Below are positions 14,166-49,677 of a stretch of DNA of 64,000 nt, piece by piece. Location of the stretch: the NCBI GenBank assembly GCA_039028615.1, contig JBCCHT010000013.1, positions 96,001 to 160,000 of the forward strand. The letters run 5' to 3'. The DNA is from Myxococcota bacterium. Lineage in GTDB: Bacteria; Myxococcota_A; Polyangia; Nannocystales; Nannocystaceae. The stretch's first letter is position 1, and each line of letters begins with the position of its first letter. The position numbers and the translations under genes are program-made. Under the pieces are notes generated by a model. It saw only the letters and a list, made by a program, of their open reading frames with translations. It searched no databases and was not told where the DNA came from.

Positions 14166-14241
14166 TGGAGCCATCTAGCGGAGTCGAACCGCTGACCTGC
14201 TGATTACGAATCAGCTGCTCTACCAACTGAGCTAAGATGGC
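14166..14241 (-). tRNA. tRNA-Thr(CGT)
   Basis: GCCATCTTAGCTCAGTTGGTAGAGCAGCTGATT-CGT-AATCAGCAGGTCAGCGGTTCGACTCCGCTAGATGGCTCCA, 76 nt cloverleaf with CCA. Confidence 0.97.
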
Positions 14242-31869: not shown

Positions 31870-31944
31870 TGGTGACCCCACGGGGAATCGAACCCCGGTT
31901 TCTGGGATGAGAACCCAGCGTCCTAACCGCTGGACGATGGGGCC
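31870..31944 (-). tRNA. tRNA-Glu(CTC)
   Basis: GGCCCCATCGTCCAGCGGTTAGGACGCTGGGTT-CTC-ATCCCAGAAACCGGGGTTCGATTCCCCGTGGGGTCACCA. Confidence 0.97.
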
Positions 31945-31947
31945 GTG

Positions 31948-32021
31948 TGGTTCGGGGACAAGGATTCGAACCTTGATTAACTGGACCAGAACCAGTCGTC
32001 CTACCATTGAACGATCCCCGA
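31948..32021 (-). tRNA. tRNA-Gln(CTG)
   Basis: TCGGGGATCGTTCAATGGTAGGACGACTGGTT-CTG-GTCCAGTTAATCAAGGTTCGAATCCTTGTCCCCGAACCA; 3-nt spacer to tRNA-Glu. Confidence 0.97.
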
Positions 32022-34857: not shown

Positions 34858-36036
34858 ATGGAGCGTATTGGCGAATACCTGGTGTCTCGTCTCATCGGTG
34901 AGGGTGGGATGGGGAAGGTCTATGAGGCGGAGGAGCGGCTTTCGAAGCGCAAGGTCGCGCTGAAGGTGCTGCGACCCGAGCTGGCCCGCAACGAGGACGG
35001 CCGCCGGCTGTTCCTCAACGAGATGACGATCTTGGCGCATCTCGACCACGCCAACGTGGTGCGGTGCCTGGCCTGTACCGAGGTCGACGGCGACCTGGTG
35101 ATGGCGCTCGAGTACCTCGAAGGGCCCACCTTGCGGCAGGTGCTGTCGGATCGCGGGCGGATCTCGTGGACCGAGGCGGCCGCCATCGTGGTGCAGATCG
35201 CCGCCGGTCTGGGCGCGGCCCATCGCCAGGCGCCGCCCATCGTGCATCGCGACCTCAAGCCCGAAAATGTCATCGTGCTGCCCGACGGGCGGGTCAAGGT
35301 GATGGACTTCGGCATCGCCAAGGTGCTCGAGGCCATGCGCAAGGGCACCACGCAGTCGGTGGGCACCTTGCAGTACATGAGCCCGGAGCAGATCGACGCG
35401 GGCGAGATCGGGCCCGCCACCGACCTGTATGCGCTGGGGCTGGTGTTCTACGAGCTGCTCAGCGGGCAGCCGCCGTTTTGCTCCGCCTCGCCGCGAGAGC
35501 TGCTCAACCTGCAGTGCACCGAGCCGCCGCCGCCCTTGCCCGATGATGTCCGCAAGGGCTTGCCGCGAGGTGTCGAGCGCTTGGTGTTTGCGTTGCTGCA
35601 AAAGGACCCGAAGGATCGGCCGGAGTCGGCCGACGATGTGATCGAGACGCTCGAGCCCTTCGCCGCGGCCGAGCTGGATCTGGGCGTGGGCATACCGGCG
35701 GGCGGCAGCACGTCGAAGTCGCCATCGAGCTCGGGGGCCCGCGCGTCGTCCTCGGGGCGCGCGGCCGTCGATACCGATCTACCTTCGCCGGCCGAGGCGG
35801 GGGCAGGCAGCACCCCCTCGCCCGTGGCCCGGCCCCCGGTGGCGGCGGCGGACACCATCGGCCTCATCGAGCGCGCCAGCGGACCGAGGCAAATCTCGGG
35901 CTCCATGGCGCTGGTCATCATCGTGGTGCTCTCGGCGATGGCGGGGCTGGTCACCTATCTCGTGCGCACGGGCGAGGCCTCGGGCGCGCCGATCGACTCC
36001 AGCGCGGTCACGGCGGTGGCCCAGCCCGGGCGGTGA
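34858..36036 (+). CDS. Membrane-anchored Ser/Thr protein kinase (intact catalytic motifs)
   Basis: GEGGMGKVY, VALK, HRDLKPEN, DFG, GTLQYMSPE, DLYALG; C-terminal TM ALVIIVVLSAMAGLVTYLV with very short external tail. Confidence 0.95.
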   Translation: MERIGEYLVSRLIGEGGMGKVYEAEERLSKRKVALKVLRPELARNEDGRRLFLNEMTILAHLDHANVVRCLACTEVDGDLVMALEYLEGPTLRQVLSDRGRISWTEAAAIVVQIAAGLGAAHRQAPPIVHRDLKPENVIVLPDGRVKVMDFGIAKVLEAMRKGTTQSVGTLQYMSPEQIDAGEIGPATDLYALGLVFYELLSGQPPFCSASPRELLNLQCTEPPPPLPDDVRKGLPRGVERLVFALLQKDPKDRPESADDVIETLEPFAAAELDLGVGIPAGGSTSKSPSSSGARASSSGRAAVDTDLPSPAEAGAGSTPSPVARPPVAAADTIGLIERASGPRQISGSMALVIIVVLSAMAGLVTYLVRTGEASGAPIDSSAVTAVAQPGR

Positions 36037-36043
36037 GCCAGTC

Positions 36044-39000
36044 GTGACGGACCCGTCCAACTCCTCGACCTCAGAAGAGACTGCGCCCGCCCAGGCAGTG
36101 AAAGAGCGGCGAGACGTCGGGCGGGCTTCGTGCTCGACCCTCGTCGATGGCTCGGAGCTATGGCGGTGGTCCGACCCGGCAGACCCGGCGGTGGTTCGGA
36201 TCGGGGCCTGGGAGGGGCTCGGGGGGTTCACGAAATCCGGCGTCGACCAGCAGGGCGCCTGGCAGTGGCGACCCGCGGCGGCGCAGCGACTCGACGCCTG
36301 GCTTCGCGAAGGACCGCATGCGTGGGCCGAGGTTCGATCGGTGGTCGTCGCGGTGGTCGAGCGCCTGCAGTGGTGCGAAGCCCGGGCGTTGTTCCCCGGG
36401 CCGCTGGATCCGGCCGAGGTCGTGCTCGACGAAGCGGGCGAGGACGTCGTGTTGCGGGCCGACGCGATGCTGCGGTCGCTGTGTGGAGACACGGCCGCGG
36501 AGACGACGGGCAGCCCCGGGCTCTCGCGTTGGGTGCCGCCCGAGCAGGCCAACGGCGAGCCGTGGGACAACGCCGCGAATCGCTACGTGGTGGGCCTGGT
36601 GCTGTACCGCGCGCTGTGTGGGCATCATCCGTTTTCTGGGCAGGGGCTGCGCCGTGGGCTGCAGCAGCAAGCCCAGCAGGGGGCGGCGCCGTTCCCCGAC
36701 GAGGTCGCACGCGAGGTGCCGCCGGGGTTGCAGTCGCTTTGTCTGCAGCTGCTCGAGCCGCAGGTGTCCGGTCGGCCCGCGTCGGCGAAGGCGGTCGCGC
36801 AGCGCCTCGAGTCGCTCGAGTCGCCGCCAGCCGCCAGCCCGCCCGAGCGCCCGCGTACGCCGAACGTCACCCAGGCTCCCGTGGCGGTCGTTCGAGCCAA
36901 GAAACCGGCGACGCCCAGTCCTCCGCGTGCGGCGTCGGCCGGCCACCGTGGCGATCGCTGGTGGCGACGCGTCGGCATCGTGGCTCCGCTGGTCGGTGGG
37001 GCTGCGCTCGCGCTGGGCATGAGCACGTTCGTCGAACCGCCGGCCCCGGCCGCCCCGCCACCCCAGGTGGGAGACGCTGCCCCGCTGACGCTGGACCAGA
37101 CCTCCGCGGACGATTGCGCCGCCTGTCACCCGCGCCAGGTCGCGCAGTGGAGTCAGTCGGTCATGGCTCATGCCGCGCGCAGCCCGATGTTCCAGGCGCT
37201 CGAGATCCTGATCCAAGAGCAGGTCGGTCGTAGCTTCGATTGCCCCGAGGGCGCGGGCGCGCTGCGGAGCGTGGACCCGCGCACCGCCTGTCGCGAGCCC
37301 AACGAAGGGCGGGCCATCACCGGTTCCGGCGGCGAGCTGTGGTGCGTCAACTGCCACGCCGCGGGCGAGAACCTCAAACCGGTCATGCCCGCGTGGGACG
37401 GCCGCGCGCGCAACTCTGCCAGTCGTCGTCCGCTTCGTGACCTGCTGCCCGATTCGGCGATGGAGGGCATCTCCTGCGCCGTCTGCCACACCACGCACGG
37501 TCCGGTGCGCCCGGGCGACGAAGAACTGGGGCGCTACGAGGGCAACCCGGGCTGGGTCTCGTTCATCACGGGCGATCGGTTTTCGTCGCGACCGGAGGAC
37601 CGACGCGGGCTCTTCGGCATCGCCAACAGCGGCTACTCGCTCGACCCTGGGGTGCTGATCGCCGGGCCGGGCGATGACGACCGTGTGCCCGGAGGGGCCC
37701 ATCGACGCACGCCGCCCGAGACCCGGGAGTACCTGCGTCGCAGCGAGTTCTGCGGGGCGTGCCACGACGTGCGCCTGTTCGGGACCGACGTCGTGGGGGC
37801 GCGCGATCGGGGCGAGCACTTCAAGCGCCTGCGCAATGCCTACTCGGAGTGGGACGCCTGGGCCACGGCCGAGCGCCGGGCGGGGCGGCAGCCCGCGTCC
37901 TGCCAGGATTGCCACATGAGCGAATTCCCGGGCCTGTGCGTGCCCGATGGCGACGGCCTCGGGGCATCGTTCATCGATCCCGGCGCCACTGCGCTGTTGC
38001 GGGCGTGCCCGCCCGGAACCCACTTCGAGTCGCGACAGCCCGGCGACTACCCCAAGGGCCGGGCCTCCATCGCGTCCGACGAGGCGACGATCACCACCCA
38101 CTACTTCTCGGGCGTCGATGCTCCGCTGACTCCCGGCATGGTCGAGGAGCTGATCGAAGACCCGCGCCTCGACGAGACCGGCGTGCCGCGGGGGCTCAGC
38201 CCGCGACGCGACATCCTGCTGGGCCGAACCTTCCGCTTCGAGGTGCGCGGGGCCGAGGCTCGTGGGGGGCTGCTCACCATCCCCGTCGAGCTCGAGAACG
38301 AAAACGCCGGGCACCGGGTCCCGGCCGGCTTCTCCCAGGAGCGCGAGATCTGGGTGCACCTGAGGGTGACCGACGCCGAGGGACGGCTCGTCTACGAAGT
38401 GGGGCGGGTCGATCGCGGCGACGAGGACCTGCACGACAAGCAGTTCGTGCGCGTCAACGTCGATGATCGCTTGGTCGATGCCCAGGGCCAGCCGCAAGGC
38501 GTGTTCGGGGCCGACGTTCGCGACGGGCCCGACGTGCCGCAGTGGAGCCCCTCGCCCCGCCTGGGCGGCTCGCGGTTCCGCGGCAAGGGCCTCATCAACC
38601 TGCAAAACGGGTTCTTGCGCTGTGTGACCTGCATCGGGCGGATCGACGCGTCCGGGCGCTGCCAGCCCTTGCCGGGGCAGGGCAACTTCCGCGCCGATCG
38701 CTTTGCCGACGGCCAATACGACCTCGATACGGGGGAGTGCGGCTCGAACCTCGTGGGTGACGAAGCGTTGTTCGAGATTTACTTCCCGGTCGGCGCTCTC
38801 GATGCCACCCGCGGAGGCACGCGGGGCCCGGATGCGATCATCGACACCCGCTCGGCGCCGCCGGGCGTGCCGCTGCGCTACGCCTACGAGCTTCCCACCA
38901 ACGGCGCCTCGGGTCCGTTCACCGTCGATGCGCGGCTGATGTTCCGGGCCTTCCCTCCGTTTCTGGTGCGAGCGTTCGCCGACTACGAGGCGATTCAAGA

Positions 39001-39100
39001 CGCGCGAGGCAACCGACCCAGCGGGCCCCTGGTGACCCACGATATGCTCGAACGGCTCGAAGTGGTCGAGCTGAATCGGGTGCGCGTGACCCTTCCATGA
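36044..39100 (+). CDS. Pseudokinase - TM - multiheme cytochrome c fusion (5 CxxCH)
   Basis: Kinase C-lobe remnants (WVPPEQANGEPWD...YVVGLVLYRALCGHHPF); TM VGIVAPLVGGAALALGM; CAACH, CVNCH, CAVCH, CGACH, CQDCH; NAGHRVPAG C-terminal domain. Confidence 0.85.
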   Translation: MTDPSNSSTSEETAPAQAVKERRDVGRASCSTLVDGSELWRWSDPADPAVVRIGAWEGLGGFTKSGVDQQGAWQWRPAAAQRLDAWLREGPHAWAEVRSVVVAVVERLQWCEARALFPGPLDPAEVVLDEAGEDVVLRADAMLRSLCGDTAAETTGSPGLSRWVPPEQANGEPWDNAANRYVVGLVLYRALCGHHPFSGQGLRRGLQQQAQQGAAPFPDEVAREVPPGLQSLCLQLLEPQVSGRPASAKAVAQRLESLESPPAASPPERPRTPNVTQAPVAVVRAKKPATPSPPRAASAGHRGDRWWRRVGIVAPLVGGAALALGMSTFVEPPAPAAPPPQVGDAAPLTLDQTSADDCAACHPRQVAQWSQSVMAHAARSPMFQALEILIQEQVGRSFDCPEGAGALRSVDPRTACREPNEGRAITGSGGELWCVNCHAAGENLKPVMPAWDGRARNSASRRPLRDLLPDSAMEGISCAVCHTTHGPVRPGDEELGRYEGNPGWVSFITGDRFSSRPEDRRGLFGIANSGYSLDPGVLIAGPGDDDRVPGGAHRRTPPETREYLRRSEFCGACHDVRLFGTDVVGARDRGEHFKRLRNAYSEWDAWATAERRAGRQPASCQDCHMSEFPGLCVPDGDGLGASFIDPGATALLRACPPGTHFESRQPGDYPKGRASIASDEATITTHYFSGVDAPLTPGMVEELIEDPRLDETGVPRGLSPRRDILLGRTFRFEVRGAEARGGLLTIPVELENENAGHRVPAGFSQEREIWVHLRVTDAEGRLVYEVGRVDRGDEDLHDKQFVRVNVDDRLVDAQGQPQGVFGADVRDGPDVPQWSPSPRLGGSRFRGKGLINLQNGFLRCVTCIGRIDASGRCQPLPGQGNFRADRFADGQYDLDTGECGSNLVGDEALFEIYFPVGALDATRGGTRGPDAIIDTRSAPPGVPLRYAYELPTNGASGPFTVDARLMFRAFPPFLVRAFADYEAIQDARGNRPSGPLVTHDMLERLEVVELNRVRVTLP

Positions 39101-41418
39101 ACGACGCTTGGTCCGAGGTCTGGCGGGCGCCCGTATTGCGGGCGCTCGACGATCCGGCCCGACGAGCCCTGAGCGCGGCCGGTCGGATCCGAGACCTGCC
39201 GCCGGGGCATCGGATCTTCACCGAGCGCGATCCGGCCGACGCCCTGTACGTGGTGCTCGAGGGCAGCGTGGAGCTTCGGGCCCAGCGGCGTGGCGACGAG
39301 GCGGTGTCGCGACTGCGCACCGCGAGAGGGGGCGATACCTTCGGCGAGGAGGCGCTCGGCGGCGCAGGCTCGCGGCGGGGGCAGGCCTGGACCGAGGACG
39401 CGACGCGCGTGGCCGAGCTGCCCGCGGCCTTGTTTCTGCGCGGGGTGGGGCGCAGTGGAGGCGCGCCCCTGGCCGAGCGAGAGCTGCGAAGGCTGCGGCG
39501 CAACGCCACGGGAGACCTTCTGCGCACGATGGCGGCCACCCGCACGCTGGCCGAGGCCGAGCTCGATCGGGTGATCGATGCCGTCGTGCCCGAGACGCGC
39601 TCGCGCGGCGCCATCATCTACGCCCAGGGAGACCCCGCCGATGGCCTGTGGCTGGTGGTGGACGGGTTGGTGCAGCTCCAGACGGAGACCGACGACAAGA
39701 TCCACGTGCAGGCCTACCTGACCCGGGGCGACGGCTTCGGCGACCAGGAATCGCTGTCGGGCGACACGCGATCCGCCGCGGCGGTGGCGATGGGGGAGAC
39801 CCGGTTGCTGCGCTTGCCCGCATCGGTGCTTCGTAGCCTCGTCGACCGCAATCCGGGCCTGGTCGATGCGATGCGGCGTATCGCCCAGGCTCGCGAGCAG
39901 CGGCAGGTGGAGGCGGTGGGCGGTGCGGCGGCGCGCTCGACCCAACACGTGTTCAAGGACCTGTACCGCATGCAGATGGCCCGCTCGCTGCTGGTCATCG
40001 ACCAGGAATCCTGCGTGCGTTGTGGCCACTGCGCGTGGACCTGCGAGTCGCTGTATGGCGTGTCTCGTTTGGTGCGGCGGGGAGACAAGATCCTCACGCC
40101 GATGGGGGAGGGCGGGGACGCGTTGCACAGCCTGCTGGTGCCCAACTCCTGCCAGCACTGCAAGAACCCGGTGTGCATGATCGACTGCCCCACGGGCGCG
40201 ATCGGTCGTGACCTCGAGGGGGAGGTCTTCATTCGCGACGCGCTGTGCACGGGATGCGGCAACTGTGCCAAGGCGTGCCCCTGGGAGAACATCCGCATGG
40301 CGCCACGGCCCACGGCACCACGTCGCGAGGATCCGGTCGAGGCGTTGTCGGCCGAGCTGGCGACCAAGTGCGATCTGTGTCGCGGCTACGAGGCGCCCGG
40401 GTGCGTGCAGGCCTGTCCCACGGGCTCGCTGGTGCGACTCGACCCGAGCCGCGACGTGGCCGAGGTGGCCGCGGTGCTGGGCACGGGGGCGTCGGCGTCG
40501 GACGACACTCCCGCGATGGCCGGCCGGGCGCGGGTGCACGGGGTGGTGCGGGGCCTCGGTGTCGTGGTCGGCCTCGGTCTCGGCGCGACCGGGCTGCGGC
40601 TGCAGCAGGTCGGCACCTGGGTCCCCGGGCAAGACCAGGGGCTCGTCGCAGGAATCGTGGCGGCGGTCGGCATGCTCGGTTTGCTCTCCTACGCCGCGCC
40701 CAAGCGCATCTCGGGCCTGTGGATGAAGCGTCGGCGCAAGACCAGCGCCGCGCGTCGCCTGGCCGCGCAGTCCGAGGGCCAGACCGAGACGCGCCCCGTG
40801 CCTCGCTCCAAGGTTCGCGGCTGGCTCAGCCTGCACGCGGTGCTCGGCATGCTCACCATGGCTGCGGTGCTCGGGCACGCCGGCCTCCGGGTGCCCAACA
40901 ACCCCGCGGGAAGCCTCGTGGTCGCCTTTTGGGCGGTCTCGGTGCTCGGGATCTTCGGTGCCGTGGTCTATCGCGTGGTGCCCCGTCGCCTCGCTCGGCT
41001 GGAGCGCCGCGGTGACCTCCCCGAGGATCTGAAGGCCGAGCGCCAAGCCCTGCTCGATCGACTCTTCGTGCGGGCCAGCGGTCGCGACGACCTGGTCAAG
41101 ACGATCGCCAGCCGGGTGCTGGTGCCCTATGCCCGCGCCCCGCTGGGACCCTTGCGGCTGCTCGCCTCGGGGCGAAGCCTGGCCGAGGAGCGAGCACGCC
41201 TGACCGTTCGCATCGACACCATGCGGCAGGGCAGGGGCGATGCCCGCCTCGGCGGCCTGGACGAGCTGGTGACCATCGCGGTGCAGCTGCGGGCACTGCC
41301 CTTGCGTCGCGGGTTGACGGCGGGTCTGCGGGGATGGCTGCCGCTGCACATCGTGGTGTCGGCGGTGGCCTTGGCTTTGCTCGGTGTCCATGTGGCGCTG
41401 ATGCTGGGGGGACCGTGA
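39097..41418 (+). CDS. Tandem cNMP-binding + DmsB/NrfC-type 4x[4Fe-4S] + cytochrome-b-like membrane domain protein
   Basis: ATGA overlap with upstream gene; two cNMP domains (GDTFGEEAL, GDGFGD..RSAAAVA); CVRCGHCAWTC, CQHCKNPVCMIDCP, CTGCGNCAKACP, KCDLC..PGCVQACP; TM helices with two H-x13-H pairs. Confidence 0.9.
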   Translation: MNDAWSEVWRAPVLRALDDPARRALSAAGRIRDLPPGHRIFTERDPADALYVVLEGSVELRAQRRGDEAVSRLRTARGGDTFGEEALGGAGSRRGQAWTEDATRVAELPAALFLRGVGRSGGAPLAERELRRLRRNATGDLLRTMAATRTLAEAELDRVIDAVVPETRSRGAIIYAQGDPADGLWLVVDGLVQLQTETDDKIHVQAYLTRGDGFGDQESLSGDTRSAAAVAMGETRLLRLPASVLRSLVDRNPGLVDAMRRIAQAREQRQVEAVGGAAARSTQHVFKDLYRMQMARSLLVIDQESCVRCGHCAWTCESLYGVSRLVRRGDKILTPMGEGGDALHSLLVPNSCQHCKNPVCMIDCPTGAIGRDLEGEVFIRDALCTGCGNCAKACPWENIRMAPRPTAPRREDPVEALSAELATKCDLCRGYEAPGCVQACPTGSLVRLDPSRDVAEVAAVLGTGASASDDTPAMAGRARVHGVVRGLGVVVGLGLGATGLRLQQVGTWVPGQDQGLVAGIVAAVGMLGLLSYAAPKRISGLWMKRRRKTSAARRLAAQSEGQTETRPVPRSKVRGWLSLHAVLGMLTMAAVLGHAGLRVPNNPAGSLVVAFWAVSVLGIFGAVVYRVVPRRLARLERRGDLPEDLKAERQALLDRLFVRASGRDDLVKTIASRVLVPYARAPLGPLRLLASGRSLAEERARLTVRIDTMRQGRGDARLGGLDELVTIAVQLRALPLRRGLTAGLRGWLPLHIVVSAVALALLGVHVALMLGGP

Positions 41419-43496
41419 GCGAGCCGTCGCCGCCCTCCGAGGGCATGTTCTCGGCGCCCGCGTCCAGCGTAGGGCGGCGTCGGACCGCGCCTCGGGCCGA
41501 GCACACGAGCGACGTGCTGCGCTTCCGTGGCGTGTTGGTGGCGGCCGTGGGCGCAGCGTTGGCCATCGTGGCGGCGGTGGTGGGCAGCGTCGATCCGGTG
41601 CGCAGTCGATCTCCGGGGCCCTTGTCTCGCCCCCACGTCGCGGCGCAGCTGAGCTGTGCGAGCTGCCACGTGGACGAACAACCGATCGTGGACCAGTGCG
41701 TCGGGTGCCATGGTCCGCACCCCTCGGTGCGACCGGGTCATCGACGCCTGGCGCAGGCAGGCACCCTACGCTGCTACGACTGCCATGCGGTCCATGTCGA
41801 CAACGGCGGCGTGGCGTTCACGCCCGAGGGCGCCGTGTGGCGCTATGGCCCGGGGTCCGAGCAGCGCGTCCCGGACCTGCCGGGGCCCAGCGAGCTGGCG
41901 AAGGAACAGCGCGTGCCCGTGGTGCCCTTGGCTCGTTGCGCCCGCTGCCATCGCACCAACGCCCCGCTCGATCCGATGGGGCGCTGCGCCATCGGGTCCG
42001 ACGAGCAACTCGGGGAGGCGCGCCCCACCGTGTGCTTCGACGAACATCGAGCCTTTGCCACCGACGCGTTTTCCGGGGGCGAAGCGGTCTACGAGCGCTC
42101 CCGGCTGTGGGCGGTCGCCCGCGAGGCGGTCGCCCGAGTGCCCGTGCTGCCCCCACCGAAACGCGAAGGCCCCGGCTCCTGGTGGTGGCTCTTGCTCGCA
42201 GGCGGCGTCGGTCTGCTGTCCTGGGGCATGGTGCGGATCGGGGCTCGGTGGTTCGGGCGCCGGACAACCTCCACCACGACCACCCCGGTCGAGCCCCCCA
42301 AGATCCGCCGACTCCCGCAGATCGACACCACGACGTGCATTGGCTGCCACGCCTGCGTCGATGCCTGCCCCTACGACGTGCTCGAGGTCCGCAGCTTCGT
42401 GGCCCACGTCGTGCGCCCCGACGATTGCTGCGGGCTGACCCTGTGCGAGCAACGCTGCCCCAACGGCTCGCTGGTGATCACCGATGGCGAGCCCATCGAA
42501 GACCGCCCCCGCGTCGACGAGCACCTCCAGTCCATCGACACGCCTGGGGTCTTCGTGGCCGGCGACCTCACCGGGCTGCCGCTCATCCGCAACGCGATCA
42601 ACCAGGGCTCGCAGGCGGCCGCGGCCGCGATCGAGAGCCTCCGCGGCGAGCCCCGGTCCGGCGATGCGGAGCGGCTCGACCTGCTGATCGTGGGCTCGGG
42701 CCCGGCCGGGCTCAGCGCGTCCTTGGCCGCGACCGAAGCCAACCTGAAGTACGCCACCCTCGAGCAGGGCAGCGTGGCCGAGAGCATCCAGTCGTTCCCG
42801 CGCGGCAAGCTCGTGTTCGATCAGCCCCTGGGGCTGCCGCTCGAGGGCGATCTGTGGCTGCGCGAGTCGACCAAAGAAGAGCTGCTGGGGCAGTGGCGCC
42901 GCATCATTCGCGCCCGCGGGCTGGCCATCCACGAGCACACCCGCGTGGTCTCCATCGATGCGCGGCCCGGCGAGCATCCCTCGTTCGAGATCGAGGCCAG
43001 CACCCACGAGGGCCCACGGCAGTGGCGAGCGCGTCGGGTGATCCTCGCGCTCGGCCGCCGCGGGACGCCGCGCAAGCTCGCCGTGTCCATCCCCGAGGCG
43101 GTGGCGTCCCGGGTGCACTACAGCATGGCCGACGCCCGCAGCTTCGCCGGCCAGCGGGTGGTGGTGGTGGGGCTCGGTGACGTGGCCATGGAGGCCGCGG
43201 TGGCGCTGGCGCGACAGCCCGGCACCACCGTCACGATCTCGTATCGGGGCGACGACTTCCGCCGCGGCAAGGGGCGCAACATCGAGCAGGTCCAGCGCCT
43301 GGTGGCAGCGGAGCGCATCGACCTACGCCTGGGCACCGAGGTCCAGGCGGTGACCGAAGACGCCGTGACCCTCAGCCACGCGGACGGGCCCGTCGAGCTG
43401 CCCTGGGACACGCTGCTGGTCATGATCGGCTCCAAGGCGCCTTGGGCCTTTCTGGAAGCGGCAGGGGTCCGACGCGGCCGCGCGCCGTCGCTTTGA
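41415..43496 (+). CDS. Multiheme cytochrome c + ferredoxin + FAD/NAD(P)H oxidoreductase fusion
   Basis: GTGA overlap; TM, SPGPLSRPH, CASCH/CVGCH/CYDCH/CARCH, TM, CIGCHACVDACP and CCGLTLCEQRCP, PGVFVAGD, IVGSGPAG, VVGLGDVAME. Confidence 0.9.
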   Translation: MSEPSPPSEGMFSAPASSVGRRRTAPRAEHTSDVLRFRGVLVAAVGAALAIVAAVVGSVDPVRSRSPGPLSRPHVAAQLSCASCHVDEQPIVDQCVGCHGPHPSVRPGHRRLAQAGTLRCYDCHAVHVDNGGVAFTPEGAVWRYGPGSEQRVPDLPGPSELAKEQRVPVVPLARCARCHRTNAPLDPMGRCAIGSDEQLGEARPTVCFDEHRAFATDAFSGGEAVYERSRLWAVAREAVARVPVLPPPKREGPGSWWWLLLAGGVGLLSWGMVRIGARWFGRRTTSTTTTPVEPPKIRRLPQIDTTTCIGCHACVDACPYDVLEVRSFVAHVVRPDDCCGLTLCEQRCPNGSLVITDGEPIEDRPRVDEHLQSIDTPGVFVAGDLTGLPLIRNAINQGSQAAAAAIESLRGEPRSGDAERLDLLIVGSGPAGLSASLAATEANLKYATLEQGSVAESIQSFPRGKLVFDQPLGLPLEGDLWLRESTKEELLGQWRRIIRARGLAIHEHTRVVSIDARPGEHPSFEIEASTHEGPRQWRARRVILALGRRGTPRKLAVSIPEAVASRVHYSMADARSFAGQRVVVVGLGDVAMEAAVALARQPGTTVTISYRGDDFRRGKGRNIEQVQRLVAAERIDLRLGTEVQAVTEDAVTLSHADGPVELPWDTLLVMIGSKAPWAFLEAAGVRRGRAPSL

Positions 43497-43638
43497 CGGG
43501 CCCCGAAGTCCGGTCGACGCCGTGCCTCCAGCTGGCGTAAAATGCGCAAACGCTTGGTGTCGCAGGCCCGTCAGATCGACGGTGCTCGTCGTGCGTATCG
43601 ACCTCCGGGCGCGTTTGTTGCGCAAGGGAGTCGTCACC

Positions 43639-45147
43639 ATGAAGCTCGGGACCGTCGCGTTGCTCTCCACCTTGGGGATGGCCCTCACCAGTATGAGCGT
43701 GTGGGCCCTGACCCCGCCGACGGGCGGCCAATCGGGTTCTCCGGCCCCGCAAACGGCTGCCGCGGCGGTCCGGCCCTCCACCGGGGGCGGCGGAGGGGGC
43801 AGCTTGCTCGCCGATCTCGTGGGGGGCTCCGACGGCGCGACCTTCACCTCGGGCTCGACCCTCATGCTCGAGGGGCGCCTGGGTCATCCCACCGTCGATG
43901 GCGCCCGCGACAACGAGACCTTCCTGATGCTCAACGTGGCCGCGGCCGCCGAGGAGCTGGCCTCGACGCCAGCCCCGGTCAACCTCTCCATCGTCATCGA
44001 TCGCTCCCGCTCGATGGAGGGTCGACGCCTCGACAATGCTCTGTCCGCCGCACGGGGCATGATTCGCCGCCTTCGCGATGGCGACACGGTCAGCGTCGTC
44101 ACCTACAACACCGACACCTCGGTGGTGGTCCCGGCCACCGTGCTCGACCGCCGCACCCGCGAGAGCGTGCTGTTCTCGTTGCGTGGCGTCGAGGCCCGCG
44201 GCCATACCTGCATCTCCTGCGGCATCGAGACCGGCCTCGACACCATGGGCCAGCGCCCCGGGGTCTCCCGCATGCTGCTGCTCAGCGACGGCGAGGCCAA
44301 CTCGGGCATTCGCGACGTGCCGGGCTTCCGCACCCTGGCCGAGAAGGCCCGCAGCCGCGAGGTCGCCATCAGCTCCATCGGCGTCGACGTCGACTACAAC
44401 GAGCGAGTCATGTTCGCGGTGGCCCAAAGCTCCAACGGCCGCCACTACTTCGTGGAGAACGAGGCCGGGCTACCTCGCATCTTCGACGAAGAGCTCGACA
44501 GTCTGGTCCGCACGGTAGCCAACCGGGCCGAGGTCGAGGTCGACCTGGCGCCGGGCGTGGAGGTCCTCGAGGTGCTCGACCGCAGCTTCACCCGCGATGG
44601 CAACCGAGTCTTTGTGCCCTTTGGTGCCTTCGCGATGGGGGACACCAAGACCCTGCTCATGCGGGTGAGGGTCCCTCGCGGTCAGTCGGGCGACCTGCCC
44701 GTGGCCGAGGTGAAGATGCGCTACGAAGACCTCACCCGGTCTCGCCCCGGTCTTTGCGAGGGCTCGCTCATCGCCCAGCGCACCGACGATCCGGCGAAGG
44801 CCGATCCCCTCGATCCGATCGTCGAGGCCCGGCTGGCGCGGGCCGAGACCGGCGCCGCGCTGCGTCGCGCCAACGAGCTGTTCAACGAGGGCGACATCGA
44901 AGGGGCCCGACGCACGCTGGGCAGCAGCACCGGTCGCATTCAGAAGCGCCGTCGGGCCAGCCGCAACAAGGCGAAGAAGGCGGATCAGCCCCTGCTCGAC
45001 CAGGACTTCGAGCGTCAGCTCAGCACGCTCGAGCAAGCGCAGAAGGGCTTCGAGGAGGCGGCCTCCGAGGCCGCGCCGACCAGCAGTCGCCGCGGCAAGG
45101 CCCAGGTGCGGAGCAACGCCAGCTCTCTGGACGAACTCGGCCTGTAG
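43639..45147 (+). CDS. Secreted von Willebrand factor A (YfbK-like) protein
   Basis: AAGGGAG RBS; signal peptide; NLSIVIDRSRSM MIDAS, LLLSDGEAN, SIGVDVDYNE; helical C-terminus. Confidence 0.9.
   Translation: MKLGTVALLSTLGMALTSMSVWALTPPTGGQSGSPAPQTAAAAVRPSTGGGGGGSLLADLVGGSDGATFTSGSTLMLEGRLGHPTVDGARDNETFLMLNVAAAAEELASTPAPVNLSIVIDRSRSMEGRRLDNALSAARGMIRRLRDGDTVSVVTYNTDTSVVVPATVLDRRTRESVLFSLRGVEARGHTCISCGIETGLDTMGQRPGVSRMLLLSDGEANSGIRDVPGFRTLAEKARSREVAISSIGVDVDYNERVMFAVAQSSNGRHYFVENEAGLPRIFDEELDSLVRTVANRAEVEVDLAPGVEVLEVLDRSFTRDGNRVFVPFGAFAMGDTKTLLMRVRVPRGQSGDLPVAEVKMRYEDLTRSRPGLCEGSLIAQRTDDPAKADPLDPIVEARLARAETGAALRRANELFNEGDIEGARRTLGSSTGRIQKRRRASRNKAKKADQPLLDQDFERQLSTLEQAQKGFEEAASEAAPTSSRRGKAQVRSNASSLDELGL

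Positions 45148-47409: not shown

Positions 47410-49677
<2,268 letters not shown>

Follow-up and report, generated by a model that had tools for sequence, protein, structure and literature searches.

A ptd-like transmembrane redox core joined to a Ser/Thr kinase and a pseudokinase in a member of the Nannocystaceae

The stretch of DNA considered here (64,000 nucleotides of contig JBCCHT010000013.1 from a Myxococcota bacterium of the family Nannocystaceae, hereafter the window) carries, between positions 34,858 and 45,147, five genes on the same strand. Their products, called P1 to P5, combine a Ser/Thr kinase, three membrane proteins with motifs for redox cofactors and an exported protein with a vWA domain. 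The features are as follows (aa, amino acids; TM, transmembrane; cNMP, cyclic nucleoside monophosphate; Ig, immunoglobulin; ORF, open reading frame).

34858..36036, + strand: gene 1 (P1), Hanks-type Ser/Thr kinase, 392 aa (ORF and Pfam Pkinase, E 7e-55)
36044..39100, + strand: gene 2 (P2), whole ORF, 1018 aa, pseudokinase-TM-pentaheme
36044..37033, + strand: P2 pseudokinase (about aa 30-265), cytoplasmic, and TM helix (aa 312-330) (Pkinase, E 1.6e-4)
37070..39100, + strand: P2 periplasmic pentaheme and Ig-like domain of the PtdA / cytochrome c552 / MccSep family (Foldseek, profiles)
39097..41418, + strand: gene 3 (P3), whole ORF, 773 aa, two cNMP domains, Fe-S domain and TM domain
39097..39906, + strand: P3 tandem cyclic-nucleotide-binding domains (Pfam cNMP_binding twice, E 8e-31)
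39982..40446, + strand: P3 four-cluster NrfC/DmsB-like iron-sulfur domain, PtdE equivalent (16 Cys; PtdE profile)
40540..41418, + strand: P3 five-helix membrane domain, predicted di-heme b, PtdF equivalent (two His pairs; PtdF profile)
41415..43496, + strand: gene 4 (P4), whole ORF, 693 aa, tetraheme c, TM helices, ferredoxin and flavoprotein
41415..42245, + strand: P4 N-terminal TSD motif, TM1, periplasmic tetraheme c and TM2 (four CxxCH)
42315..43496, + strand: P4 cytoplasmic two-cluster ferredoxin and permuted FAD domain (PDB matches, motifs)
43639..45147, + strand: gene 5 (P5), exported vWA protein, 502 aa (Pfam VWA, E 5e-17)

None of the five ORFs contains an internal stop, and the junctions read in the DNA are a gap of 7 nt between genes 1 and 2, an ATGA overlap at 39097 and a GTGA overlap at 41415, which is the co-oriented layout that an earlier note on this DNA had described. 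The vWA gene follows gene 4 after 142 nt. In a promoter and terminator scan, promoter-like sites in front of the vWA gene (1 versus 0.4 expected) and terminator-like sites (4 versus 4.0) occur at chance level. Pfam and NCBIfam return a kinase for P1, a weak kinase C-lobe and a multiheme match for P2, two cNMP domains and Fer4 for P3, cytochrome c3-like, Fer4 and Pyr_redox matches for P4, and VWA for P5. Together with the motifs, this bears out the domain content proposed before, namely a kinase, a pseudokinase-TM-pentaheme protein, a cNMP-cNMP-4x[4Fe-4S]-membrane protein, a tetraheme-ferredoxin-flavoprotein and a vWA protein. No curated NCBIfam family cut-off was reached by any of the five. 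The host genome (12.3 Mb) contains cytochrome c assembly genes and six class III cyclase matches, none of the latter inside the cluster.

With P3 as the query, GTDB genomes yielded 36 loci, carried by Nannocystaceae, Polyangiaceae, Enhygromyxa, Plesiocystis, Paraliomyxa and unclassified (delta)proteobacteria, in which the order of genes 2, 3 and 4 is kept wherever the contig extends far enough; the arrangement is therefore not a matter of chance. These loci, a second copy in the host genome and nine loci from genomes picked as being of the kinase type form a set of 46, after L060 had been dropped as a duplicate of L006. The second copy (L037, contig C25, 193819-203927) consists of genes 2 to 4 with an orthologous kinase downstream that is fused to a PQQ-type beta-propeller. 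A gene for a large FecR-VIT-vWA-TPR protein lies near the cluster in 9 of the 46 loci (L032, 16094-20401, and eight others).

The earlier note knew of no characterized system with this architecture, but the core matches a gene set that has been named from bioinformatics. The available text of Elbon et al. (bioRxiv 10.1101/2023.11.21.568154) gives a bioinformatic description of the operon ptdABCDEFG, the function of which is stated there to be completely unknown, and lists its parts as a pentaheme protein with a beta-sandwich, a porin, an FAD/NAD(P) oxidoreductase, a tetraheme protein, a cNMP/4Fe-4S protein, a ferric-reductase-like TM protein and a decaheme protein. A PtdE-like query fetched 80 metagenome loci, and the 34 of at least 8 kb were annotated; the complete A-G order is present in five of them, and a sixth locus is cut off after F. 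The Ptd profiles were built from loci matched by the gene order and description in that paper, not by its accession tables. The PtdA profile (9 loci) matches P2 (E 1.4e-28), the PtdE profile matches P3 (E 4.9e-50) and the PtdF profile matches the TM domain of P3 (E 1e-14), while the PtdG profile shows a weak similarity of its start to aa 43-97 of P4 (domain E 6e-5, whole-protein E 0.023). The PtdC profile gave no match on P4, and the PtdD profile gave none on the P4 tetraheme and only CxxCH-level matches on P2. The PtdB porin profile (6 loci) was run on the five proteins, the genome ORFs of at least 250 aa and 47 kinase-type loci and matched none of them at E ≤ 1e-3; among the other genes shared by the 46 loci no porin candidate was seen, which leaves room for an unrelated porin elsewhere.

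Because the PtdA, PtdE and PtdF profiles match while those of PtdB, PtdC and PtdD do not, the cluster is ptd-like but partial: judged by these profiles, its redox core is a fused, rearranged version of ptd, ptd-like in its working and not a full member. The two have in common a PtdA-type heme domain (in P2), PtdE and PtdF (fused as P3), an NAD(P)H flavoprotein and a membrane-anchored multiheme cytochrome c. They differ in that the porin PtdB and the c554-like PtdD were not detected in the kinase-linked cluster, that a permuted YpdA/TrxR flavoprotein with a ferredoxin is found here and an FNR/2Fe-2S (flavohemoprotein-like) PtdC there, and that P4 has a tetraheme domain where PtdG is a decaheme protein. 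Moreover, the PtdA-type domain is here anchored in the membrane and fused to a pseudokinase, and kinase and vWA genes are added. The P4 flavoprotein is likely to be a functional replacement for PtdC. With the core already named, the distinctive and new part is the signaling module, that is, the link between kinase and pseudokinase; no description of a kinase-linked ptd version was found in the open-access texts searched.

The five CxxCH motifs of P2 all lie after its single TM helix. A model of this periplasmic part (predicted local distance difference test score, pLDDT, of 65) had a sole Foldseek match at E ≤ 0.001, the Thermochromatium tepidum cytochrome c552 (5ZE8, E 5.6e-9), and comparison of the two folds gave a Z of 12.8 and a root mean square deviation of 4.2 over 333 aligned residues. 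Searches of the PDB with the single sequence and with a profile of close homologs returned no match; besides the fold search, a deeper profile of the P2 family did match, to 5ZE8 (E 2e-26) and to MccSep (9WT8, E 5e-15). According to the accessible parts of the respective papers, 5ZE8 is a PtdA homolog (bioRxiv 10.1101/2023.11.21.568154), these pentahemes form one family of unclear function (PMC11976967), and MccSep (ExtKL) of Geobacter sulfurreducens is a periplasmic polysulfide reductase that uses Cys239 on heme 2 together with the selenocysteine (Sec) Sec325 (bioRxiv 10.1101/2025.11.18.688581; PDB 9WT8), its authors regarding an unoccupied heme position as the usual substrate site of multiheme enzymes. 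P2 shares with MccSep and c552 the five CxxCH hemes, the Ig-like stem and the GH-x-x-P-x-G loop. A Met takes the place of one of the distal His residues, and four additional pairs of conserved Cys and the fusion to a TM helix and pseudokinase also set it apart. At the position of Sec325 it has Phe763 (in all 21 sequences), and no Cys is present in the distal segment of heme 2, where Leu596/Arg597 align; PtdA-type proteins have the same Phe and likewise no Cys. Membership of MccSep/ExtKL was ruled out on the lack of both a Sec or Cys in the loop after GH-x-x-P-x-G and a distal Cys on heme 2.

The predicted distal ligands of P2, Met374, His553, His686 and His757, are conserved in 21 of 21 sequences, with Met374 standing in every case where the fourth distal His is expected. 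Arg595 and Arg597, near heme 2, are equally invariant (21/21), no Cys occurs between heme motifs 4 and 5, and relatives have Glu, Gln or Cys at the position of Arg597. Because the Cys/Sec pair is absent, P2 is not a MccSep and yet appears to leave heme 2 open, which from these alignments is likely to be an open site with a conserved pocket. It is plausible that the pentaheme is a terminal catalytic or ligand-binding subunit. The earlier view that the cluster has no terminal subunit thus stands as far as molybdo- and NiFe subunits are concerned, but is doubtful for the pentaheme itself. Elsewhere in the host genome, on contigs C3, C33, C38 and C45, at least five more pentaheme proteins, none of them in a cluster of this kind, match the P2 profile weakly.

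P3 starts with two cNMP domains. Their model has its counterparts among CRP and PKA-R domains (Z 16-18), and the binding-cassette residues are kept in both (G83/E84 in 19/19 and R93 in 17/19; G215/D216 in 19/19 and R225 in 18/19); from this domain content, gating by nucleotides may be expected. The Fe-S domain has 16 Cys in four ferredoxin-type motifs, invariant in 43 rows, and matches NrfC at E 7e-19, below the family cut-off, which agrees with the DmsB/NrfC-like ferredoxin seen before. P3 has the four-cluster relay in common with NrfC/DmsB-type respiratory complexes, while the cluster is without their molybdo-subunit or NrfD anchor and has cNMP domains and c-type hemes attached. Membership of a molybdoenzyme complex (Dms/Nrf/Psr) was ruled out, given that neither a molybdopterin subunit nor an NrfD-type anchor is among the five genes or among the genes shared by the 46 loci. 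In the TM helices, His580/594 and His751/765 are conserved in close and distant members (all four in 21/21), a pattern that suggests two bis-His b hemes. Since no solved structure was matched by the PtdF-type TM domain in a PDB profile search (21 rows), the term "ferric-reductase type" used for this domain in the earlier note holds as a resemblance of the His pattern only; a structure search with the whole P3 model was filled by the cNMP domains, and an Atlas lead reached just 0.89. With NOX and ferric reductases the system shares two His pairs on parallel helices and the logic of NADPH, FAD and two hemes across a membrane, but its FAD fold is not of the NOX type.

P4 consists of an Arg-rich N-terminus, TM1, the tetraheme domain, TM2, the ferredoxin and the flavoprotein. 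Its four periplasmic CxxCH motifs and His74/109/127/211 are present in 43 of 43 sequences, from which four bis-His hemes are predicted, while a fifth CxxCH is part of the ferredoxin motif. The second ferredoxin cluster is atypical (CCGLTLC in 61/61), with only three canonically spaced Cys. The best PDB matches of the flavoprotein are YpdA/Bdr, a bacillithiol disulfide reductase (E 5e-19), and the TrxR-type ferredoxin-NADP+ reductase 3AB1 (E 2e-16). The domain is circularly permuted: the back of P4 aligns with YpdA residues 5-268 and its front, weakly, with YpdA residues 274-314, so that the C-terminal FAD segment has been shifted to the front. The TrxR fold proposed earlier is therefore present, in permuted form and lacking the CxxC of TrxR, there being no Cys beyond residue 348. 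The FAD/NADPH two-domain fold without CxxC is shared with YpdA/Bdr and the TrxR-type reductases (7A76, 7A7B, 3AB1), from which P4 differs by the permutation and by its fusion to a ferredoxin and a membrane cytochrome. A thioredoxin reductase was ruled out by the absence of the redox-active CxxC of the NADPH domain, and a YpdA/Bdr by a score of 122.6 bits versus a cut-off of 339.9 and by an Ala at the Cys of the YpdA GGGPC motif, a residue that we take to be catalytic. A ferredoxin-NADP(H) reductase is likely, with a preference for NADPH that we presume from its motifs.

A complex of P3 (aa 280-773), P4 (aa 30-360) and four hemes was predicted with a score of 0.72, versus 0.01 for the best control; in calibration runs, which contained no hemes, this value was attained by 116 of 157 solved pairs and 2 of 215 mismatched pairs. 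At least 72% of contacts are shared between the runs, and the partner pLDDT is at least 72. In the model, TM1 of P4 packs on the last helix of P3, the heme-1 motif of P4 touches the loop after His594, and the N-terminal TSD motif of P4 touches the Fe-S domain. These results support binding of P3 to P4, and the check by complex prediction proposed in the earlier note was borne out for this interface, but not for the ferredoxin, which lies outside its confident part. Several modules are fused elsewhere: FAD, cNMP and Fe-S domains form a single chain in Sphingobium, FHA, cytochrome, ferredoxin and FAD domains are joined in four loci, and in P0259 a PtdF-type TM domain is naturally fused to a pentaheme/Ig domain. 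Together with the predicted complex, such fusions support the continuous chain from NAD(P)H over FAD, Fe-S and heme b to heme c that had been postulated.

By its motif set P1 is predicted to be an active Hanks-type kinase, with Gly loop, Lys, HRD, DFG and APE all retained and with the Asp residues of HRD and DFG and the activation-loop Thr164 conserved in 27 of 27 sequences. Its TM helix lies at the C-terminus (aa 351-369) and leaves nearly no periplasmic part. The host genome has 374 long kinase matches, and the best other kinase to P1 is that of the second cluster copy (285 bits versus 163 for the next), so that by this measure P1 belongs to a cluster-specific lineage. In the kinase-like domain of P2, where the Pfam match covers the C-lobe only, HRD is replaced by FPG and DFG is also replaced, while the GLR motif of the C-lobe is conserved in 29 of 30 rows. 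With a profile of this pseudokinase, P1 is the top active kinase domain of the genome (108 bits versus 85 for the next), one other ORF standing above it by whole-protein score. In two trees, pseudokinases and cluster kinases together split from 24 and 14 other kinases of the same genome, with supports of 97/93 and 96/99. The trees used part of the 176 full kinases and the pseudokinase branch is long, because of which an origin of the P2 pseudokinase by duplication of P1 is graded as likely and not as shown.

Sister operons without a kinase carry two to four FHA domains at the N-terminus of P4, with intact phosphothreonine-binding GR...SxxH motifs in the 4 of 4 examined; by these motifs, they are an independent link to Thr phosphorylation. 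The loci L044-L048 hold P3 and an FHA-bearing P4 with extra cytochromes of 7-16 hemes and no kinase in the fetched DNA, and L044 further encodes a divergent pentaheme together with a barrel-like protein. Conserved cytoplasmic residues, Thr282 of P3 (41/43) and Thr31 (39/43) and Ser32 (41/43) of P4, are candidate phosphorylation sites. A working analogy is offered by the MviN pseudokinase of Mycobacterium tuberculosis, which is treated together with PknB and FhaA in the available text of a review (PMC12599244) and is likewise a membrane protein with a pseudokinase possibly under Ser/Thr kinase control. MviN differs in having no redox cofactors, the kinase-linked cluster has no FHA protein, and homology was compared at the level of the kinase fold only. 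In that same text of the review, which surveys bacterial pseudokinases as of 2025, a heme-fused pseudokinase is not mentioned, the strings "cytochrome", "heme" and "Myxococc" not occurring.

The reading that we prefer, and to which we give slightly better than even chances on the strength of sequences and structure models, is that the cluster encodes an outward chain from NADPH to the periplasm that would end in the open-heme pentaheme and be under the control of cyclic nucleotides and the kinase. The permuted flavoprotein of P4 would oxidize NADPH and load its own ferredoxin, from which electrons would pass to the four clusters of P3, cross the membrane through its two predicted b hemes and reach the four c hemes of P4, the first of which lies, in the model, at the periplasmic exit of P3. 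P2 would be the end of the chain and may reduce or bind at heme 2 a small periplasmic acceptor, probably one containing N, O or S. Since no PtdB-type porin was found, the electrons are unlikely to leave the periplasm. The likely role of the tandem cNMP domains is to switch the P3 step, and P1 likely phosphorylates the complex, at the candidate sites of P3 and P4, or docks on the P2 pseudokinase as PknB acts on MviN.

The same parts can be read as serving signaling only: the wire would keep the P2 hemes charged with little turnover, and the redox or ligand state of P2 would pass through the TM helix to the pseudokinase and on to P1. The architecture of P2 is that of a receptor (a heme domain, one TM helix, a pseudokinase), the C-lobe of its pseudokinase is conserved and groups with P1, which has no sensor domain of its own, and the substitutions at Met374 and Arg597 as well as the failure to find a porin also fit. 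On the other hand, in ptd operons, in L059 and in P0138 this pentaheme is not accompanied by a pseudokinase, MccSep, the one characterized member of the family that was encountered, is an enzyme, and ptdAB is reported in the available text to be highly transcribed (bioRxiv 10.1101/2023.11.21.568154), a better fit to a metabolic role. The earlier note had argued for a signaling machine from the want of a terminal subunit; this argument finds no support, since the pentaheme family of P2 includes an enzyme, and it is weakened because heme 2 of P2 is likely open and has a conserved pocket. We consider signaling as the sole role unlikely.

Whether the kinase belongs to the system was judged from its distribution. 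With an ortholog defined by at least 52% over 230 aa, 35 of the 46 loci have the kinase, seven end too soon upstream, and the four that lack it despite full flanks have an ortholog elsewhere in the genome in every case (68-72%). The vWA gene lies inside the fetched flanks of 29 of the 46 loci and travels with the kinase gene. In an unselected test on 401 Myxococcota genomes including the host, with only 2-6 candidates scored per genome, the Fe-S and TM part of P3 was matched in 29, the kinase ortholog was present in 15, and the P2 ortholog in the identical 15; distant pentahemes occurred in four further genomes, and no kinase ortholog was found in the 14 genomes whose core is of another version. 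The vWA ortholog was present in the same 15 genomes and in two where the core was not found. With the gene order kept in the 36 related loci, this agrees with the co-conservation that had been put forward as a check, and, with the FHA domains of related operons, it supports the postulated link to Ser/Thr phosphorylation. The 14 carriers besides the host belong to two families, as 2 of the 4 genomes in one and 12 of the 29 in the other, a patchy presence among kin.

The vWA protein P5 has an intact metal-ion-dependent adhesion site (MIDAS) and beside the MIDAS Thr a CxxC, as TC(I/V)SC in 22 of 22 orthologs; the motif G-x-T-C-(I/V/M)-S-C, at 44206-44226 of the window, is invariant in this vWA subfamily. 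Only 2 of 19 vWA matches of the host genome have the CxxC, both of them orthologs, and the second such gene is unlinked, on contig C16. The CxxC is possibly a periplasmic thiol switch or a structural disulfide. Kinase and vWA protein might form a separate unit, the vWA protein perhaps acting as a thiol switch on the kinase, beside an ordinary ptd-type reductase that would be regulated by cyclic nucleotides only or not at all. The two genes remain paired when away from the core (8 divergent loci; L064 and L066), the vWA ortholog occurs in the two genomes where the core was not found, and each genome has hundreds of kinases. Set against this, the kinase ortholog is found only in genomes with P2 (15/15), including the 4 of 4 in which it is unlinked, the P2 pseudokinase is related to P1 itself, and the sister operons have their intact FHA domains, so that a separate unit is, in our estimate, quite improbable.

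We also give little credence to an inward or quinone-coupled chain, in which P2 would oxidize a periplasmic donor, or heme b exchange electrons with quinone, and the flavoprotein would produce NAD(P)H or supply an assimilatory reductase. In its favor, quinone is frequently bound by di-heme b membrane domains, and the host genome has a stand-alone PtdE/PtdF-like pair (L039, contig C50, 8817-18536) arranged back to back with genes for a DmsB-like FeS-membrane protein, a NirB nitrite reductase and a molybdoenzyme resembling NasA and formate dehydrogenase, which hints that a PtdE/PtdF-type module could serve nitrate assimilation. Against it, electrons moving inward from the c hemes, one of which has predicted His/Met ligation, would go uphill to NADP+, no energy-coupling module is encoded, and the predicted contact of P4 heme 1 with the periplasmic heme side of P3 needs no quinone.

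Several points weigh against the outward, kinase-controlled chain. The P2 model is of middling quality, at the pLDDT of 65 given above, the ligation of heme 2 was taken from alignments with an uncertainty of one residue, and typical cofactor potentials are the sole argument for the direction of flow. The P3/P4 run included hemes, unlike its calibration, and a contact of the P4 ferredoxin with P3 is absent from the confident interface. Because the carriers fall in two families, the co-occurrence of kinase and P2 is not independent evidence. Kinase and vWA genes leave the core together, being divergent in eight loci; the kinase is elsewhere in the genome in four cases, the pair is together yet unlinked at L064 and L066, and a diverged pair is present in L069, from a genome in which no core was found. 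Finally, the pseudokinase is missing in two homologs, L059 and P0138.

Outside the kinase-linked form, the 20 loci fetched from 28 matching genomes comprise, besides 10 of the kinase type, five in which P3 and P4 stand with other multihemes and five PtdE-like loci, three of them fused to a flavoprotein and with TM or multiheme genes separate. The module is also found on plasmid loci of Sphingobium and Emticicia; that of Emticicia (L041, 11004-19700) has a PtdF-like TM protein, the same permuted ferredoxin-flavoprotein, cytochromes with 23 and 40 hemes and a barrel-like protein, adjoining ccsA. A pentaheme match on a Shinella plasmid has an unrelated iron-uptake/nos setting, and a Pseudoalteromonas flavoprotein is located among glycosyltransferase genes; single modules therefore also exist outside the system. 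Around the cluster in the window, a membrane-anchored Fe-S/CCG-domain oxidoreductase (47410-49677, - strand) occurs in only four close relatives, and tRNA-Glu, tRNA-Gln and tRNA-Thr genes lie at 31870-32021 (- strand) and 14166-14241 (- strand), with GGT and HAD genes between the first two tRNA genes and the kinase. The flanking GGT, HAD and Fe-S oxidoreductase genes were ruled out as members of the cluster, being common to at most 6 of the 46 loci.

A further, tentative proposal, which we think unlikely to hold in full, would close these parts into a periplasmic loop: the cNMP-gated NADPH wire would charge the pentaheme receptor, the pseudokinase would switch its parent kinase, and the kinase would phosphorylate the wire in feedback, with the CxxC vWA protein as a second redox input and the open heme sensing a small ligand or the periplasmic redox state. 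If true, an electron-transfer chain would here be wired to a pair made up of a receptor-pseudokinase and its kinase. Direct switching of a transmembrane electron chain by cAMP/cGMP or by phosphorylation, should it occur, would be a mode of control for which no description was found in the open-access texts searched. No function is known for the widespread ptd module, which the kinase-linked version packs into three membrane proteins; this version is present in cultured myxobacteria (Plesiocystis, Enhygromyxa and Paraliomyxa). Given that a likely terminal subunit and a dedicated kinase have been identified, the function of ptd and its control become testable.

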